The notes under the pieces: generated by a model
What the model was told of the DNA's origin: nothing
Seen by the model: only the letters and a program-made list of their open reading frames with translations
The model's database searches: none
Shown here: in pieces, positions 3,677 to 25,310 of the stretch
How positions within the stretch are numbered: the first letter of the stretch is position 1
Layout: the number at the start of each line of letters is the position of its first letter
Position numbers and translations under genes: made by a program
Virus record (IMG/VR): IMGVR_UViG_3300031784_000007
Direction: 5' to 3' (one strand)
Length of the DNA stretch: 28,969 bases
From: a virus
Taxonomy: Duplodnaviria; Heunggongvirae; Uroviricota; Caudoviricetes

Positions 3677-4501
3677 TTATGCTAATAAGTGATAATACTC
3701 TTTGAAGTGTTTAATTCTATCAGGAAGTCCGATAGTACCACCGTTTACTCTTTTTGTAACTGCGGTTACCGTAGCGTCATCAGCTCCTTTGTCAGCAATT
3801 GCATTCAATCCGTTCTTACTAAAGAACCAACCTGCTGATGCTAATGCGTATTTGGTAGCAACCAAATCAGGATTTGCAACCGTATCTTCACCGATTGATT
3901 TTGCAAAAGATGTGTAGTTTTCTTTTCCTGTCAATTGGATGTAACCTCTACCTCTGAATTTGTAACCTTCTTTTGTTTCCTCACCACCGTTACCCATTCT
4001 TCCACCATAAACTTTTGATGCAATTTTTTCAGGGTTTCTTGCGTATGACTCAGCGATGTTACCAGGGAAATATTTAGGGAAAATCTTCTTGAGACCATCC
4101 GCTGAGTAATTTAAGTTTTCTTGTGTTGCTTTGAATCCACCTGACTCGTGACCACATTGTGCCAAGAAGTGAGCCAATCTCAAAGGTGTGTTGATTTGGA
4201 ATTTTTCCATTACAGTTGGAATCTGTACGATTACAGCTTCAGGAATGTGTCCTTTTAATTTTTCCAAATTAAGTGGGCCACCTTTAGGGATAACAACATC
4301 TTCTTTAATAACTGATGCTGACAATCCTAATTTTTCCATTGATGCTGGACCGATAATACCGTCAGCAGTTAAACCATTTTTTGTTTGCCATTCCTTAACA
4401 ACCTTTTCAGTGCCAGAACCGAAATCACCGTCTGCGGCAATTCCTAATTTTGATTGAAGAGCTTTTACCTCTTCTCCTTTTGAACCTAATTTTAAAATCA
4501 T
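3677..4501 (-). CDS. Endolysin: N-terminal peptidoglycan-binding domain plus GH19 (chitinase class I-like) muramidase
   Basis: LKLGSKGEEVKALQSKLG..ADGDFG..T...VKEWQ..NGL.ADGIIG matches PG_binding_1. RLAHFLAQCGHESGGF..ENLNYS, YKFRGRGYIQLTGKENY and TKRVNGGTIGLPDR are GH19 motifs. Confidence 0.93.
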   Translation of the reverse strand: MILKLGSKGEEVKALQSKLGIAADGDFGSGTEKVVKEWQTKNGLTADGIIGPASMEKLGLSASVIKEDVVIPKGGPLNLEKLKGHIPEAVIVQIPTVMEKFQINTPLRLAHFLAQCGHESGGFKATQENLNYSADGLKKIFPKYFPGNIAESYARNPEKIASKVYGGRMGNGGEETKEGYKFRGRGYIQLTGKENYTSFAKSIGEDTVANPDLVATKYALASAGWFFSKNGLNAIADKGADDATVTAVTKRVNGGTIGLPDRIKHFKEYYHLLA

Positions 4502-11853: not shown

Positions 11854-13023
11854 ATGCGTGATTTAATTAAAAAAATACTTAGAGAAGAAGTTGGGGTACC
11901 ACGTGGGATTGTGGATTCTGCACAAAGGTTATATAACGATATTATATCAAGATTAAAAAGAAAAACTATAACAGGTAATTCTAACTTTATTTTAACTTTT
12001 AAAAATGTAAATGGGAAATATTCGTTTTCTGATTTCCAAGATTTTGAAAGTATAAAAGTTGAATTTGAATTTAAAGAGTATTCTGAAACTGATATGCACA
12101 AAGGGATATTAATTTTAGGTATGGGTCACAACGGTCAATCACGATTAGATGATGGATTTGAACTAATCAATCTTGACACGGATAATATAAACCTTTCGAT
12201 AGATTTAGCAATTCCAGAAACAATTAATGAAATTGACAATAAAATTATTATTAAAACTCTTGAGGATAATAAACAAATGATTGTTTCTTCATTGTCACAT
12301 GAATTAAAACATGCTTATGACGGTTTTAAAAAACCAAGTGAAGGTTTAAAACAAAGGTCACAATATAACGTATATTCAGGTACTCGTTTTGGTATTGAAG
12401 AAATTGATGAATTTGTATACTTCCTTTATTTTATTACCGTAATAGAAAATTTGGTAAGACCCTCTGAAATTTATAGTTTAATGCAACAGGGTGAAATTTC
12501 CCAAAAAGATTTTTTAAATTTTATATCAAGTAACAGAACGTATTCAACACTTAAAAAAATAAATGAATTTAGTATTGATAAGTTGATAGAATCTTTAAAA
12601 CAAAAACCTGAACAAGTTGATAATTTACTATCAAATGTTGAAGATTATGAAATGCCGGATTCAGTAGATGAAAAAATAAATGATTTATTAAAAGTTATTT
12701 ATTTGGAATTACAGAAAAAAACATTACAGAGAGCTCACTCAATGTTAACAAACAATTTCTTTGAGGCTATGTTTGGTTTGTCAGATGAAAAAATGAAGTT
12801 TTTAAATTCCTTTGAAAGTGAAATTTTAAAATTTAAAAATAATCCATTGAGATATTTTGAATTCCAAGAAAAAAAGTTTAAATTTGTAAGTGAAAAGATG
12901 ATGAAACGATTGTCAAAACTATATTCTTTGGCTAAGCCAAACCCTATTAAATTGGTTAACAAAGACCCAATGACATTTGAGATGAGAATGTTGGAGTCTA
13001 AACCAAGAAATATAAAATCTTAA
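11854..13023 (+). CDS. Putative zinc metallopeptidase (HExxH) with leader
   Basis: SSLSHELKHAYD with downstream IENLVRPSE as candidate third ligand. Leader MRDLIKKILREE; TATTTAT at 11838..11844. Confidence 0.6.
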   Translation: MRDLIKKILREEVGVPRGIVDSAQRLYNDIISRLKRKTITGNSNFILTFKNVNGKYSFSDFQDFESIKVEFEFKEYSETDMHKGILILGMGHNGQSRLDDGFELINLDTDNINLSIDLAIPETINEIDNKIIIKTLEDNKQMIVSSLSHELKHAYDGFKKPSEGLKQRSQYNVYSGTRFGIEEIDEFVYFLYFITVIENLVRPSEIYSLMQQGEISQKDFLNFISSNRTYSTLKKINEFSIDKLIESLKQKPEQVDNLLSNVEDYEMPDSVDEKINDLLKVIYLELQKKTLQRAHSMLTNNFFEAMFGLSDEKMKFLNSFESEILKFKNNPLRYFEFQEKKFKFVSEKMMKRLSKLYSLAKPNPIKLVNKDPMTFEMRMLESKPRNIKS

Positions 13024-13033
13024 TATAAAAATT

Positions 13034-13483
13034 GTGGACATAATTAGTGATTTATCACGAATACGAACTATTTTATCAGAAAACAAAAAAGAAAATTCTG
13101 ATGAAAAAGAAGTTTTAATAGATTTATTAACTTTTTTAATTCCTGACCATAGTGTTTACAGTCCTAATGTGGTTTATTTGGATAGGAATTCGGATGATTA
13201 TCAAAAATTTTACATGCAATACAGTGTAAATAGAGAACATACTATTTTAGAAAAAGAAGAATCTTACGATGATGATGACGTATTAAGTACTGAATATAAA
13301 GGTACGGTCTATCTAACAATAGAAAAACTCAACATTCTTGACGAATATAATAATATTTTGGTTGAAGATGCTGACTGGTACGATGTACCTGAATATGTTT
13401 TTGAAGAATTTGAAGGTGAATTGGGTGTTTTGTGTCACAGATATGGTCTAAATGTAGATTTTGACTATATTGTAGAAGATTAA
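13034..13483 (+). CDS. Leader-bearing acidic protein (TEYxGT module)
   Basis: GTG start. TEYKGTVYLTIEKL...DVPEYVFEE...VDFDY aligns with TEYEGTIYIIVDRL...DIPEYIWDD...VDFDI in 13715..14899. Confidence 0.75.
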   Translation: MDIISDLSRIRTILSENKKENSDEKEVLIDLLTFLIPDHSVYSPNVVYLDRNSDDYQKFYMQYSVNREHTILEKEESYDDDDVLSTEYKGTVYLTIEKLNILDEYNNILVEDADWYDVPEYVFEEFEGELGVLCHRYGLNVDFDYIVED

Positions 13484-14940: not shown

Positions 14941-15468
14941 TTAATAATTAACACTAATACTTGGGTGTAAATTAAATTCTTTAGTGAGCATTTCTCTTAT
15001 ATTACTGGTTATAACGTATTTACGAATATTATGTCTTGAACGAGTTTTAAAAGTAATTTTAATTCTTGGATATAAATCGTCATCTCCTCGTTTAAATGAA
15101 ATACCATGAATTGAACCATCGCCAATTTCACGAATACGTGGTTTTATTATTTTTTCAAGAACTTTTTTATTCCAAATTTTTTCATCATCAGATTCAAAAA
15201 ATACTCTAGAAAACACACTTTGATTTTCTTTTAAAAAACCATAGTTTATGATATCTTTTTTAATCTTATAAAAATGTGATTTAATATCGTTTGAATTTAT
15301 ATAAAAATTATTTGTGATTAATTTTTCGTAATTAAATTTTACATGAAAATAAATTGTTATATATCTTTCACTATATGTTAATTGATAATCAAATTTTATA
15401 TTATCTGAAAACATGTTAGAGTCACTAAACCTATTTATAAAATCGTATATTAATTCTTGGTCAGCCAT
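14941..15468 (-). CDS. Hypothetical protein
   Basis: 175-aa ORF; TATCTTTG on the minus strand at 15476..15483. Confidence 0.7.
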   Translation of the reverse strand: MADQELIYDFINRFSDSNMFSDNIKFDYQLTYSERYITIYFHVKFNYEKLITNNFYINSNDIKSHFYKIKKDIINYGFLKENQSVFSRVFFESDDEKIWNKKVLEKIIKPRIREIGDGSIHGISFKRGDDDLYPRIKITFKTRSRHNIRKYVITSNIREMLTKEFNLHPSISVNY

Positions 15469-15475
15469 AACAATA

Positions 15476-15524
15476 CAAAGATACTAAAATCATTTGAATA
15501 TGCAAAAAATAATTACTAACTTTG
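15476..15524. promoter_or_regulatory. Divergent pair of Bacteroidota-type primary-sigma promoters
   Basis: Minus strand TATCTTTG (15476..15483). Plus strand TTTG(15493..15496)-20 bp-TAACTTTG(15517..15524), matching the established Bacteroidota TTTG/TAnnTTTG consensus. Confidence 0.75.
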
Positions 15525-15528
15525 TAAT

Positions 15529-17508
15529 ATGGATTCTACTTATGAAATGGTAAAAGAACTTATTGACTTTAATTCTGAGGGAGTTGACACGTATAACCAC
15601 AATGGAAGTACGTGGTTAATTTTTACTGACCAAAAAAAATGGGTCATAGAATTAACAAAAGAAAAAACTCTTTGGTATAACTATTATTTTTTTACAGGTG
15701 TTTTCAAATACCTTTCTTTAGATGTTGTTGAAAATCAACATTATATAACCAAATGGGTTGAAGATAACGTAATAAATGGGGCGAAATACACCGGAGGATT
15801 AAGAATCAAGGACCAATCTTTGGTTGAAGACACCATAGGAAATGGGGTTAAATACACCATTGATATTGAAGATACCATAGAAAATGGGGTGAAACACACC
15901 ATAGACACCACACATCATAAAAACAAATATGTTGAAGACACCATACAAAATGGGGTGAAAGAAACCAAAGGGGAGTATTATAAAGAAATTCAAAAAGTTG
16001 AATACACCATTCAAAATGGGGTAAAAGACACCATAGTCACCTACAACAACTTCAATTCCCAAGTTGAAAACACCATACAAACTGGGGTGAAATGTACCAT
16101 CCCCCAAAATAATAAAAGTCATGAATACGTTGAACACGCCATACAAAATGGGGTGAAACGCACTATTGCCGATGACATAAGAAGGGGTTGGCCGATTATT
16201 GAAGATACCATACAAAATGGGGTGAAAAAAACGAAACGCAGTTATGAGGGTTCAAGAAAACAGAGAACAAAAGACACCATAGAAAATGGGGTGAAACACA
16301 CTTCTAACCGTAGGCTGGTTGTATCTAAAGATATTGAAGACACCATTCAAAATGGTGTTAAACGCACCTTACAAAAGAATATCAATCGTATTGGGCAAGT
16401 TGAAGACGCCATACAAAATGGGGTGAAATACACACATCCAATGGGTAAAGATAAAGAATCAATTGTTAGTAATGATTTTGGTATGAACGAAGCCATTCAA
16501 AATGGGGTGAAACATACACAAGGTAGTATTTTTGCTAACCCAACAACAGTTAAAGACACCATACAAAATGGGGTGAAAGTTACCTACTCAGATAAGATTC
16601 CTCATGAATATGATTGGTCTAACCAATTTACGGAAGAAATTGACGACATTATTCAAAATGGGGTTAAACACACCGAAAAATCTCTACAAATTGATGGTTC
16701 TTGTGTTATTGAAGATGTTATAAAGGAGGGGGTGAAACATACTGAGTATGGTGATTGGTTAGATGGTGATGAGAGATTGGATGATATTATTGACAATGGT
16801 GTAAAAGAAACAACACCTGGTGGTTATTTGGGTTCCGTTGAAATGAAGGGTAAGACAGTTCATCAGTTTGAACATTCAAAACAAGATGATGATGTTAAGG
16901 ATGTTATTAAAAATGGTATTAAACATACTGAAATTTCTTGGAGTAATTTTGACAGAGTTGACGATGTCTTGGAAAAAAGTATCAAAAAAACTGAGGCGGC
17001 TGCTTTGTTTGACGAATCAAAAATAGATACGGTCATCAGTGAGGGTATTAAAGAAACTCATGATGATGTTATGCCTCATACAGGTAGGGTTGAGGGTGTA
17101 ATTAAAAATGGTGTAAAGAAAACCGTAGACGCTTTATCATCAAGATTACCAAACCCTGTTAAAGATGTTATTAAAAATGGTGTTAAAATATGTATACCCT
17201 CACGTACTCCACTATACAACCCAATGGATTTTTCTGTTCAATATCGTGAAAACCATAGATTAGATGATGTTGCAAGTGTTTTGGAAAAAGGTATTAAAGA
17301 AGTACAACCATTACCCTCTCAAGAAGGTAATATGGATTGGGGTAACTACTATCACAAACAAGAAGATAGAACCAAACCTCACACGAAATATGTTGATGAT
17401 GTAATAACCAATGGTATCAAAAAAACAAAGGCAATGGATGAATGGGTTAATACTGACCGTATTGTGGATGGTGTTATAAGTAAGGGGGTTAAAAAATCAC
17501 CAATTTAA
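15529..17508 (+). CDS. 659-aa repeat protein: N-terminal globular module plus 24 [VI]EDTIQNGVKxT repeats with unique inserts
   Basis: Uninterrupted ORF; all inserts keep frame; repeats show synonymous and conservative changes. Confidence 0.85.
   Translation: MDSTYEMVKELIDFNSEGVDTYNHNGSTWLIFTDQKKWVIELTKEKTLWYNYYFFTGVFKYLSLDVVENQHYITKWVEDNVINGAKYTGGLRIKDQSLVEDTIGNGVKYTIDIEDTIENGVKHTIDTTHHKNKYVEDTIQNGVKETKGEYYKEIQKVEYTIQNGVKDTIVTYNNFNSQVENTIQTGVKCTIPQNNKSHEYVEHAIQNGVKRTIADDIRRGWPIIEDTIQNGVKKTKRSYEGSRKQRTKDTIENGVKHTSNRRLVVSKDIEDTIQNGVKRTLQKNINRIGQVEDAIQNGVKYTHPMGKDKESIVSNDFGMNEAIQNGVKHTQGSIFANPTTVKDTIQNGVKVTYSDKIPHEYDWSNQFTEEIDDIIQNGVKHTEKSLQIDGSCVIEDVIKEGVKHTEYGDWLDGDERLDDIIDNGVKETTPGGYLGSVEMKGKTVHQFEHSKQDDDVKDVIKNGIKHTEISWSNFDRVDDVLEKSIKKTEAAALFDESKIDTVISEGIKETHDDVMPHTGRVEGVIKNGVKKTVDALSSRLPNPVKDVIKNGVKICIPSRTPLYNPMDFSVQYRENHRLDDVASVLEKGIKEVQPLPSQEGNMDWGNYYHKQEDRTKPHTKYVDDVITNGIKKTKAMDEWVNTDRIVDGVISKGVKKSPI
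15757..17499 (+). repeat. Array of 24 imperfect 36-bp direct repeats (consensus GTTGAAGACACCATACAAAATGGGGTGAAACACACC) with unique spacers, mostly 30-33 bp
   Basis: Copies start at 15757, 15823, 15865, 15931, 15997, 16063, 16129, 16198, 16267, 16333, 16399, 16483, 16549, 16639 and continue, increasingly degenerate, to 17464. Confidence 0.92.
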
Positions 17509-18432
17509 TGCAAACGTTTTAATTATAATTCCATAACGGTCTTTGAAGTACTCAGATACCAACGACTCAGATTTTTCTCTACTTTCAATAGAAAAGTATT
17601 TTGTTAACTCGTTAACAATGTCCTCACTTAAAAACATTTTTCCCCACGAATTTTTTTGTGCAATTATATTTTTATCTAATACTAAATCATCTTTTCTGTA
17701 TATACGAAGATAACTGTCCTCATCAGTAATATTAAAACCACCATAGGCCATCTGTACAATATCATCCATAACTTCAAACATGCTTTCCTTGTTGTCCTCC
17801 TCAGATTCATTTAATGAATCTTGATTTTGTTCTTTCCAAAATTGTCTAATTTTATCACCAACCAATTTCTTAAATATTTCCTCATACTCGGCAACATCTG
17901 ACCAATCAATATCATAAATTACCTCAGGTAATAATATCTCAATTACATAATCAACATAATCGTTTTCAGGATATTCTTGAGCTTCTTCACCAATATCGGT
18001 ATTGTTTAACATCTCATACAAGACATCAGATATTTCTGACAACCTTCTTCTAACTGAATTAGGTATGATTTGTTCAAACTGAGATTCGGTAATAATAATT
18101 TTTCTTACTGACTCAGTTCTTAATTTTTTACCACATTTTTTATTATAGTGATTAGCAAGGTAATTACCAAATAAATCAACCATGTGATAATAAAAACTAT
18201 CTCTATCTTTGGAAGATACATCTATATCTTCAAGATAACCGTATGTCATCATATCACAGGCTTCTGCAACAAAATCACCAGCGTTATCAAATTCACATGG
18301 TATCATATGATATTCAATAATGATATCCATTTCTTCTTTCATAACATCCATAGACATTCTTCTACGAAGATATGTGGAGATGGTCTCCAATAAAAATGTT
18401 TGATGTTGTGATTCGGTGATAATGATGTTCAT
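17497..18432 (-). CDS. Three-module protein: two leader-plus-acidic-helical units and a C-terminal module
   Basis: IIITESQ occurs at the N-terminus and again internally (LRTESVRKIIITESQ), each followed by RRR and an acidic module. SLNES precedes a third module related to 27542..27901. Confidence 0.8.
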   Translation of the reverse strand: MNIIITESQHQTFLLETISTYLRRRMSMDVMKEEMDIIIEYHMIPCEFDNAGDFVAEACDMMTYGYLEDIDVSSKDRDSFYYHMVDLFGNYLANHYNKKCGKKLRTESVRKIIITESQFEQIIPNSVRRRLSEISDVLYEMLNNTDIGEEAQEYPENDYVDYVIEILLPEVIYDIDWSDVAEYEEIFKKLVGDKIRQFWKEQNQDSLNESEEDNKESMFEVMDDIVQMAYGGFNITDEDSYLRIYRKDDLVLDKNIIAQKNSWGKMFLSEDIVNELTKYFSIESREKSESLVSEYFKDRYGIIIKTFALNW

Positions 18433-19025
18433 TATTTAATTTTCAACATTTCAACAATAGGTTTACCGTATTTTAAAATAATCCTTTTGCTATTTATTTG
18501 TGAGGTTTCAAAAGATTCCATAACAAAAGGACGATTGCCAACCTTTGTCATAAACTGATATTGGTTTCCAAACTTTAAGGTACCAAAAGTTTCTTTTTCT
18601 CCATAACCAGGAAAATCACTATTGTTTGTTCCAACCAAATAAGAATTCTTTCCGCCTCTTTCCAAAATGGCAACAGAGTCCTGACAATACATTTCACCCA
18701 ATTTAATAATGGTTGAAATAAAGTTAGAATCATCCTTAGTGTTAACAACAAACCAAGAATCTTCCTTAACCTCAACAGAATTATCCTGTAGATAATTTTC
18801 AATATAGGTACCTTTTACTTTTGTAATATCATACCCCATCAACATTAACGCTGATGCCAATTCACGATTACGTTCTTTATTTTGAAATGTATTTACCTTC
18901 TCGTCTGAATCATCACCATTCAAACAATTTATCATCTGAGCTCTAAAGGCTGTAACAATGGCACAATCATGATTTAGAATATGAGCGTAAACTCGTGATA
19001 AACTCTTTTCATTAATTTGTTCCAT
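18432..19025 (-). CDS. Conserved-looking phage protein, DUF3293-like
   Basis: AIVTAFR...NKERNRELASAL...G...VKG.Y.E...E.S.FV...LGEMYCQDSV resembles the DUF3293-type pattern. Start set at MEQINE because the ATG at 19031 overlaps the TATTTAT motif. Confidence 0.5.
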   Translation of the reverse strand: MEQINEKSLSRVYAHILNHDCAIVTAFRAQMINCLNGDDSDEKVNTFQNKERNRELASALMLMGYDITKVKGTYIENYLQDNSVEVKEDSWFVVNTKDDSNFISTIIKLGEMYCQDSVAILERGGKNSYLVGTNNSDFPGYGEKETFGTLKFGNQYQFMTKVGNRPFVMESFETSQINSKRIILKYGKPIVEMLKIK

Positions 19026-19058
19026 ATCCATAAATACAAAGATAATACAATTTATTTA

Positions 19059-21670: not shown

Positions 21671-22108
21671 TTATAATAAGTTGTATATATTTCTTAATTC
21701 ACCTGTAATTTCAAAAGGTTGGGTATCTTCCCAATCTTCAATCTTATTACTCATGAATGGTTTCCCACCTTCAGGGTTTACTGCTAATGTTACATGTGGT
21801 ATTTTGTTCTGAGATGGAAAGCCTTCAACCCTAACCGCAATTGCCATGTCACTCTTACCTAATTGGGTAACCACAAGTGTTTGAACACTACCTAATAAAT
21901 TTTCATCTTCGATTCCCCTACCCATGGCTATTGTCATGTGGTGCGCATATTTTTTCCATCCATCAGGAATTTCACCTCTGAATCTATCTAATAATAGTTC
22001 ACTTGATTCATGGTCTAAGACGACTGCAGAATAACTTATTGTTTTTTTTTCTTCATTAAGAAGTCCCATCATTGATTTAATTCTTGATATGTTTTCTTGT
22101 AGGTTCAT
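21671..22108 (-). CDS. 2H phosphoesterase (tRNA-ligase CPDase-like) with MNLQENI leader
   Basis: Two H-x-T-hydrophobic motifs, HHMTI and PHVTL, 54 aa apart, plus GGKPFMSN. Confidence 0.8.
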   Translation of the reverse strand: MNLQENISRIKSMMGLLNEEKKTISYSAVVLDHESSELLLDRFRGEIPDGWKKYAHHMTIAMGRGIEDENLLGSVQTLVVTQLGKSDMAIAVRVEGFPSQNKIPHVTLAVNPEGGKPFMSNKIEDWEDTQPFEITGELRNIYNLL

Positions 22109-24702: not shown

Positions 24703-24808
24703 TAGTCAGGACAGGATTCGAACCTGTATACGTGGATATGGTATCTACGGTGGATTACCCGCCTCACCTCACCACTTATCCTTGCGTCTACCATTCCGCC
24801 ACCTAACT
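24703..24808 (-). ncRNA. tRNA-like element 1 (106 nt; Leu-type acceptor, D and T arms; no canonical anticodon arm)
   Basis: AGTTAGG/CCTGACT acceptor with one G-U, GCG-GAATGGTAGA-CGC D arm, ACAGG-TTCGAAT-CCTGT T arm, discriminator A. The 56-nt middle folds as a long imperfect hairpin (GGATA/TATCC, TGGT/ACCA, GGTG/CACC). Confidence 0.75.
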
Positions 24809-24814
24809 ATTTCT

Positions 24815-24901
24815 TTAATTTTTAAAGTATGATTTAATTTTCAACCATACTATTTCAGGACAATTGTATAACCACCAAAAAAACCAATATATCTTTTTCA
24901 T
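24815..24901 (-). CDS. 28-aa aromatic micro-protein between tRNA-like elements (not in ORF track)
   Basis: MKKIYWFFWWLYNCPEIVWLKIKSYFKN; A-rich leader; fills the inter-element gap. Confidence 0.55.
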   Translation of the reverse strand: MKKIYWFFWWLYNCPEIVWLKIKSYFKN

Positions 24902-24921
24902 ATCTTTTATTTTGTTTTTTG

Positions 24922-25052
24922 TAGTCAGGACAGGATTCGAACCTGTATGTCAACCTCTACGACAGAGCTGTTCTTATTAACCGTGGCCAGCGGGTTTATT
25001 ACAGTTGTAGTTGACTATCTATGTAGCGTCTAACCAATTCCGCCACCTGACT
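24922..25052 (-). ncRNA. tRNA-like element 2 (131 nt)
   Basis: AGTCAGG/CCTGACT acceptor, GCG-GAATTGGTTAGA-CGC D arm, same T arm. 79-nt middle closed by GTCAAC/GTTGAC with inner CTGT/ACAG and CCG/CGG pairs. Confidence 0.75.
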
Positions 25053-25200
25053 ATATTTCTTTTGATTTTAAGTAATCTTTAACAACCTTTTCTACTGTTG
25101 GGTCTAATTCATCACCAGAATCACATATTTCTAAATGACCATAACCATCAACATGTACTTCTTTAACATACTTGAGAAAATCTATCAATTCTTTTTCCAT
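25051..25200 (-). CDS. 49-aa micro-protein (not in ORF track)
   Basis: MEKELIDFLKYVKEVHVDGYGHLEICDSGDELDPTVEKVVKDYLKSKEI; its TAG stop overlaps the 5' end of element 2. Confidence 0.65.
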   Translation of the reverse strand: MEKELIDFLKYVKEVHVDGYGHLEICDSGDELDPTVEKVVKDYLKSKEI

Positions 25201-25216
25201 CTTATTTTAATTTTAG

Positions 25217-25310
25217 TAGTCAGGACAGGATTCGAACCTGTGTAAAGTTTACAAGCTTTAACTACCACATTCATTAGTGGTATGCGTTATACCAATTCCG
25301 CCACCTGACT
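25217..25310 (-). tRNA. Atypical class-II tRNA-like element 3 (94 nt), identity unassignable
   Basis: Same acceptor and T arm; D arm GCG-GAATTGGTATAA-CGC; anticodon-like arm TACCAC/GTGGTA with 8-nt loop TAATGAAT; long variable arm AAAG/CTTT; no encoded CCA. Confidence 0.55.

Follow-up and report, generated by a model that had tools for sequence, protein, structure and literature searches.

CRISPR arrays (short palindromic repeats, clustered and regularly interspaced) are regarded as non-coding memory. The locus described here raises the question of whether an array of this kind can lie inside a reading frame and be translated. It is found in an IMG/VR virus record (IMGVR_UViG_3300031784_000007, Caudoviricetes), of which a stretch of 28,969 nucleotides (nt) was analyzed as a whole, hereafter the window. 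An intact open reading frame (ORF) encodes P0001, a protein of 659 amino acids (aa), and the 3′ 88% of this ORF is an array of 24 units, each formed by a 36-nt repeat and a linker (spacer), the first at position 15757 (Table 1). This repeat region is built like a CRISPR array and probably originated as one. In the account that we favor, and that we consider fairly probable, the array derives from a type VI-B CRISPR array and grows, within the protein family, by a ruler-type process that adds a repeat together with a 30-nt insertion, and selection on the protein filters and recodes the outcome. A search of the literature found no description of translated CRISPR-type arrays.

Array layout, coding and likeness to type VI-B repeats

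Our parsing agrees exactly with that of an initial annotation made from the letters alone, which had listed 24 repeats of 36 bp from 15757 and, among the first 12 spacers, eight of 30 nt, two of 33, one of 6 and one of 48 (in order 30, 6, 30, 30, 30, 30, 33, 33, 30, 30, 48, and 30 nt). Each repeat encodes VEDTIQNGVKxT, and the linkers encode about 10 aa. The frame stays open as annotated, since 23 of 23 spacers have a length that is a multiple of three and contain no stop codon. The repeats are nearly identical at the 5′ end and decay toward the 3′ end, again as described: units 1–14 show 74–92% identity to the reference copy (one of them, at 100%, being the reference itself), and the later copies that are still recovered by the repeat finder show 63–68%.

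The gene is intact, conserved and genuinely protein-coding, and both its N-terminal domain and its 12-aa motif are under purifying selection; the initial annotation had already conceded that selection on the protein is real. Over the 24 repeats, conservation is 0.74, 0.89, and 0.63 at codon positions 1, 2, and 3, and units 15–24 still encode [VI]xD[VI]IxNG[VI]K despite the decay of their DNA (position 2 conserved at 0.92, vs 0.62 for position 3). The ratio of non-synonymous to synonymous substitution rates (dN/dS), computed against syntenic relatives with 93–97% identical flanks, is 0.08 for the strongly conserved N-terminal domain (76 aa), 0.26 for the 30-nt core of the repeat, 0.62 for the linkers and 1.04 for the x-T codons. 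A frame that is open through all units and clear selection at the protein level favor the view that this is an ordinary, fast-evolving tandem-repeat protein. The repeat cores would then be homogenized by unequal crossing-over or gene conversion, the 10-aa linkers would drift under a length constraint and be shuffled between co-infecting phages, and both the likeness to VI-B repeats and the 36 + 30 geometry would be coincidental. We judge an ordinary repeat protein to be rather unlikely, in view of the sequence of the repeat and the behavior of the linkers.

For the repeat sequence, we used as references the VI-B repeats of Flavobacterium columnare (GTTGGGAAAGCCCTTATTTTGAAGGGTATCTACAAC) and F. 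branchiophilum and, as controls, the II-C repeat of F. columnare and a 36-nt repeat of F. branchiophilum taken as V-A (all from PMC5395568, Table 4), together with a third VI-B repeat from the literature, that of Prevotella PspCas13b. The minus-strand consensus of the window repeat is identical to the F. columnare, F. branchiophilum and Prevotella VI-B repeats at 23, 21, and 19 of 36 positions, compared to 11 and 13 of 36 for the II-C and V-A controls; the Prevotella repeat itself matches the two Flavobacterium VI-B repeats at 24 and 22 of 36. The likeness depends on the strand (23 matches for the minus strand vs 15). The summed VI-B score was reached by none of 537,706 36-mers from related phage loci and by one in 10^6 composition-preserving shuffles. 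At the level of the DNA sequence, we regard the resemblance of the minus-strand repeat to VI-B repeats as significant rather than due to chance. The initial annotation had reported 20 of 36 matches to an unverified Bergeyella Cas13b repeat sequence; its arithmetic was right, and the verified VI-B repeats give 19–23 of 36. As far as the geometry and the sequence of the repeat are concerned, its suggestion of an exapted CRISPR array is supported.

A likeness expected about once in 10^6 is difficult to reconcile with an ordinary repeat protein, also because it depends on codon choice beyond the peptide: when all synonymous encodings of VEDTIQNGVKHT are ranked by VI-B likeness, the codons used fall within the top 1%. 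The codons GGG, GTG, and ACC, flagged earlier as rare-looking, are indeed uncommon: in 25 other window genes they account for only 7%, 9%, and 16% of the codons in their respective families, and units 1–14 use them 13, 9, and 9 times out of 14. Units 15–24 have returned to GGT and other codons preferred by the phage. Matches of the individual units to a VI-B repeat range from 17 to 23 of 36 in units 1–14, and from 10 to 18 of 36 in units 15–24.

Repeats of other family members reach 25 of 36 matches to a VI-B repeat, and in one of them (L011) 19 of 21 bases are identical in repeat positions 16–36 by a hand count. A subfamily of six loci (L008–L011, L018, and L019) has a different junction (…W-FESRFL…) where the N-terminal domain passes into the first repeat, and its repeats are the nearest to that of F. 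columnare VI-B (24–25 of 36).

Linkers and the growth of arrays in relatives

The family is large, with more than 540 homologues in one search and at least 571 clusters at 50% identity, all from metagenome DNA or IMG/VR phage contigs; a relative was also sought in bacterial genomes, where none was found. The number of units per protein ranges from 5 to 27. Among the fifteen closest homologues the length varies from 480 to 715 aa, and phages with 93–97% identical flanks carry versions of 500 to 659 aa.

In relatives, new units consist of a perfect copy of the repeat and a unique, GC-rich insert of exactly 30 nt, and they lie at the end that faces the N-terminal domain. This is clearest at the related locus L007, where two tandem paralogs (L007:6001-6657 and L007:6712-7963) have one spacer in common, ATCGCACATGGGTTGAT[G/T]TCCGCGAACACC. 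Between this common spacer and the N-terminal domain lie private units, five in one paralog and four in the other, with 100% identical 36-nt repeats and unique spacers of exactly 30 nt, whose GC content is 0.37–0.63 against 0.31 for the locus. On the far side of the common spacer, the second gene has further units, which are older, diverged and richer in AT. The gene at L007:6001-6657 consists only of the N-terminal domain and a ‘pure’ array, in which six perfect repeats alternate with six spacers of 30 nt, and its stop codon lies in a degenerate terminal repeat.

The same tendencies are seen across the family. Linkers between repeats that are identical at 35 or more of 36 positions are singletons in 7 of 7 cases (16 distinct genes), and singleton linkers account for 39% at position 1 and approximately 10% at positions 9 and beyond. 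The order of cassettes is concordant at 98.1% over 1,831 array pairs. Relative to the block that two arrays have in common, 1153 private units are N-terminal and 425 C-terminal (a 2.7-fold difference), the majority (3520) being interspersed. Along the arrays, the GC content at third codon positions (GC3) of the linkers falls from 0.35 to 0.22 (rho = -0.29, p = 0.007), and their overall GC content is 0.36–0.44, compared to 0.30–0.33 for the loci. In amino acid composition they are closer to translated random DNA (Kullback-Leibler divergence 0.068) than to phage proteins (0.141), with 8.0% Arg and 5.0% His, vs 3.2% and 1.5% in the proteins of the phage. Exactly 30 nt is the length of 135 of 235 linkers. 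Neighboring linkers are unrelated to one another, and linkers in general resemble each other little more than codon-shuffled controls do (8.36 vs 8.14 matches per 30), with a small related tail only.

These patterns are not expected from duplication of whole units, but they are expected if the repeat is duplicated and new DNA is inserted. Unrelated, GC-rich singletons between identical repeats, a random-like and non-phage composition and a gradient in GC3 all argue against an ordinary repeat protein. Variable tandem-repeat proteins, such as the tape-measure protein of Bacillus phage PBC1 with its 11-mers or cassette-variable surface proteins, do resemble the phage family in having in-frame repeats, a variable copy number and recombination between repeats. 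They differ in that here only the 36-nt part is duplicated, while the 30-nt inserts are unrelated, fixed in length and foreign-looking in composition.

Polarized growth by a repeat plus an insert, one of the options raised in the initial annotation, is supported in relatives (by the L007 paralogs and by the polarity across the family), but is not seen as a recent event in the lineage of the window: the array is old, and a comparison of alleles showed no recent gain of a unit.

The closest known parallel is found in Flavobacterium, where type VI-B (Cas13b) arrays occur without cas1-cas2 and are filled in trans by the Cas1-Cas2 proteins of the II-C system (Hoikkala et al., 2021, PMC8092290); for F. 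columnare, the spacers so acquired include self-derived ones (PMC8092290). Like these arrays, the phage array combines a 36-nt repeat with a 30-nt spacer, has repeats that are 21–23 of 36 identical to theirs (up to 25 of 36 in relatives, including GxTG..., TTTTG, GG, and CAAC), gains units in a polarized manner with duplication of the repeat (in relatives of the window gene), keeps a collinear, spoligotype-like order with decayed repeats at the old end, and has no adaptation genes beside it. Unlike them, it is phage-borne, lies inside an ORF, is translated and is selected as protein, and it comes without a hairpin, cas13b or an AT-rich leader.

A ruler-type integration would duplicate the repeat and add to the gene a 30-nt segment of DNA from outside the phage, and the most economical candidate for this activity may be host Cas1-Cas2 acting in trans, by analogy with F. 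columnare, whose VI-B array lacks cas1. Inserts would survive only if they keep the frame and contain no stop codon. With age, units would be recoded to the codon usage of the phage, so that the repeat persists only as the peptide [VI]ED[TV]IQNG[VI]K. The window array would now act as a protein, in which an anchoring N-terminal domain is followed by a multivalent series of some 24 short helix-Gly-cap motifs with weakly constrained inserts between them. More specifically, and as a tentative proposal that we find somewhat less probable than its opposite, host Cas1-Cas2, acting in trans on the VI-B-like repeats of the phage, may write host-derived or other foreign DNA into a phage protein gene in segments of 30 nt, selection keeping or discarding the resulting peptides; the window array would then be an old, codon-ameliorated product. 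If this is true, the sources of the inserts might have a common flanking motif, a protospacer adjacent motif (PAM; e.g., NNNNNTAAA-like).

What is described here is a large protein family of big freshwater phages with VI-B-like arrays of CRISPR geometry in its reading frames, which grow by single units. Should this growth be driven by Cas1-Cas2, it would represent a new route to protein sequence, a novel form of phage–CRISPR cross-talk, and a natural DNA recorder that writes into a translated product. Growth by another cause would still mean that repeat proteins can evolve in a way not yet described, with a duplicated repeat combined with a novel insert. For annotation, such arrays should be treated neither as simple false-positive CRISPRs nor as simple repeat proteins.

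Evidence against a CRISPR origin and against CRISPR activity

Several observations weigh against a CRISPR origin with ruler-type growth, and a number of them are what an ordinary repeat protein would show. The alleles of the window gene differ by patches of recombination and one internal unit indel, rather than by gain at the leader end, which indicates that ordinary recombination also shapes the array. Across the family, discordant cassette orders amount to 1.9%, and a large number of private units lie interspersed. Among short linkers 18% are 33 nt long, a length that a ruler of 30±1 would rarely yield, and linkers at Hamming distance 1–5 are far more frequent than under the null, forming a continuum of point-mutational divergence. 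A T[IV]WNGIK 11-mer similar to the window motif is present in tape-measure proteins of Bacillus phages, the motif shared with PBC1 being T-I-x-N-G-[IV]-K. In addition, the first repeat of the window array differs from the others, and synonymous sites beside the junction of N-terminal domain and array are without unusual conservation. The growing end differs from that of the F. columnare VI-B array as well, since it lies at a coding domain and at the opposite end of the repeat; as far as the text and figure legend of PMC8092290 indicate, it abuts the repeat end that would be leader-distal in F. columnare.

The tape-measure protein of PBC1 (L024, record 12802-13434) contains consecutive 11-aa repeats T[IV]WN[GA]IKS, which resemble the DTIQNGVK core.

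The lack of features of an active CRISPR system weighs on the same side. The VI-B hairpin is lost in the window repeat, with one of six central and three of four terminal pairs retained. Its minimum free energy is -7 kcal/mol (z = -0.87), whereas real VI-B repeats fold at -10.9 to -12.2 kcal/mol (z = -2.5 to -3.7). The ‘leader’ side of the array is occupied by a conserved protein domain, and there is no non-coding array with an AT-rich leader. Searches of the window and of five partial relatives for Cas1, Cas2, Cas13b, and reverse transcriptase found none of them; the longest ORF of the window is the array gene itself. A PADLOC match to Cas2 on 14941-15468 (minus strand) was at chance level (E = 0.007), had no support from Pfam or from a PDB profile search, and was rejected. 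Involvement of a diversity-generating retroelement or another reverse transcriptase was discarded as well, as no RVT_1 was present in the five partial relatives.

Protospacers were not found either. The exact-match scans covered spacers 1, 5, and 7 of the window and three spacers of L007, in collections that do not contain even this phage lineage. In metagenome contigs, neither spacer 1 nor a 23-mer taken from spacer 7 had a match, and a 24-mer from spacer 5 had none in 185,579 species genomes. In IMG/VR, the cores of spacers 5 and 7 had no match, and the three young spacers from L007 hit nothing but themselves. When the whole array was compared by BLAST with phages, plasmids and E. coli, nothing was returned, and the related phage DNA (363 kb), searched by local BLAST, gave nothing either; no spacer match was seen in phage records, in the rest of the window or in related loci.

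These results bear on a further possibility, a functional CRISPR element in which antisense read-through RNAs are bound by host Cas13b as guides or decoys, the protein being secondary. The strand that resembles CRISPR RNA (crRNA) is indeed the minus strand. The minus-strand gene upstream of it overlaps the array gene by 12 nt (17497..18432), and a consensus scan found no terminator between the two, in agreement with the initial annotation; because of this overlap, read-through from that gene would yield the strand that resembles the crRNA sense. Phage-borne repeat mimics are a familiar idea (RNA anti-CRISPRs). Still, with the defining hairpin gone, no match of the window to the Rfam CRISPR-DR model, the most decayed repeats at the end nearest to the putative antisense promoter, no protospacers in the records and loci scanned and strong selection on the protein, we consider such a function very unlikely. 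The Cas13b-decoy RNA that had been proposed for this locus is not supported, given the lost hairpin and the lack of a cas gene in the window.

Cas-less or mini CRISPR arrays are reported to occur in huge phages (Al-Shayeb et al. 2020), and solitary phage repeat units reportedly act as RNA anti-CRISPRs (Camara-Wilpert et al. 2023). As in those cases, the phage studied here carries repeats of host-CRISPR type without adaptation genes of its own. Unlike those arrays, which are non-coding and act as RNA, the window array forms an exon-like portion of a conserved protein and has not kept the RNA structure.

The encoded protein and its genomic setting

P0001 is acidic (pI 5.7) and hydrophilic, with no signal peptide apparent by eye. 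Scans with Pfam, PHROGs, and PADLOC, which covered P0001 and about 30 neighboring ORFs, assigned it to no family except for a match to phrog_3806 at E = 4e-4. AlphaFold2 (AF2) modeled residues 1–82 with high confidence (predicted local distance difference test, pLDDT, ~96) as a helix, four strands and two helices. Fold searches with this N-terminal domain matched only uncharacterized phage proteins, at template modeling (TM) scores of 0.6–0.84, and revealed no clear PDB, VIA-wide or AFDB relative; a search of the ESM Atlas by features found nothing. In several uncharacterized proteins of uncultured Caudovirales, the domain (residues 1–82, 15529-15774) is present by itself or joined to different C-terminal parts (BFVD, TM 0.6–0.84, and three ESM Atlas clusters that are all-viral); in this it resembles a phage module that can be reused.

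The full-length model is poor over the array (pLDDT ~30), with short helices on VEDTIQN up to the invariant Gly and no solenoid or fiber fold. This may count against an ordinary repeat protein, and it also bears on the idea that P0001 is a structural protein of the virion, a tape measure or fiber whose length is set by the number of repeats. Weak tblastn matches to the tape-measure repeats of Bacillus phages (E = 2e-7, 25% identity) and the variable copy number speak for a structural role. The lack of an extended helical or fiber model, the length variation among the closest homologues and between phages with near-identical flanks, and the absence of adjacent tail or chaperone genes (the neighbors being an S-adenosylmethionine (SAM) lyase gene and small unknown genes on the opposite strand) leave us giving it hardly any credence.

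Three other candidates were rejected. A faint match to dodecin in relatives was a likeness to a 16-residue helix only. A polyprotein of the T4 type, with capsid targeting and a prohead protease, was dismissed by inspection, as the motif has no consistent [LIV]-x-E site. Base reading as in transcription activator-like effectors (TALE) does not fit either, since the variable residue x is inherited together with the linker downstream of it (linkage 88%) and the prediction shows no solenoid.

The features of the locus are collected in Table 1.

Table 1. Array gene, array segments and surrounding features in the window.
Feature	Position	Strand	Basis or remarks
Array gene, intact ORF, 659 aa (P0001)	15529..17508	+	N-terminal domain, then 24 repeat-linker units
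N-terminal alpha/beta domain, conserved, phage-specific	15529..15756	+	AF2, dN/dS, fold matches
Units 1–14, repeats near consensus GTTGAAGACACCATACAAAATGGGGTGAAACACACC, spacers mostly 30 nt	15757..16674	+	Parsing, VI-B matching, codon counts
Units 15–24, repeats decayed at the DNA level, longer, widely conserved linker cassettes	16708..17499	+	Parsing, codon-position conservation
Candidate Bacteroidota-type promoter TTTG-N20-TAACTTTG, 4 nt short of ATG	15493..15524	+	Read from sequence
Convergent gene, 311 aa, no family match	17497..18432	-	ORF call, profile scans
S-adenosylmethionine lyase-like gene, T3-type anti-restriction family	18432..19031	-	Pfam PF23780, E = 1.7e-10
Divergent neighbor, 175 aa, small family of close homologues only	14941..15468	-	Homologue search
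Endolysin, PG_binding_1 + GH19	3677-4501		Family scans of window ORFs

The candidate promoter upstream of the array gene was read from the sequence on the basis of the Bacteroidota consensus -33 TTG / -7 TAnnTTTG; the -33 TTG element is also mentioned in PMC8092290. If it is used, the candidate would imply early, almost leaderless transcription by the host RNA polymerase. The SAM lyase gene, which is the second gene away from the array gene and keeps synteny in five relatives (L022, L023, L025, L026, and L028), suggests an accessory or anti-defense neighborhood. Judged from the candidate promoter and these neighbors, the array product is probably an early, cytoplasmic accessory protein for host takeover or anti-defense.

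Near-identical copies of the locus are present in ENA, JGI, and NCBI assemblies, and the 659-aa allele was found again, 99.3–99.6% identical, in three other samples. In close relatives, the gene for the 175-aa neighbor (14941-15468, minus strand) always adjoins the array gene. Elsewhere in the window, a 145-aa ORF at 21671-22108 (minus strand) near a tRNA-like cluster matches the cyclic phosphodiesterase domain of fungal tRNA ligase (PF08302, E = 2e-6). Three Rfam tRNA hits at 24703-25310 (minus strand) span 94–131 nt, compared to a model of 71 positions, and correspond to tRNA-shaped genes with large inserts.

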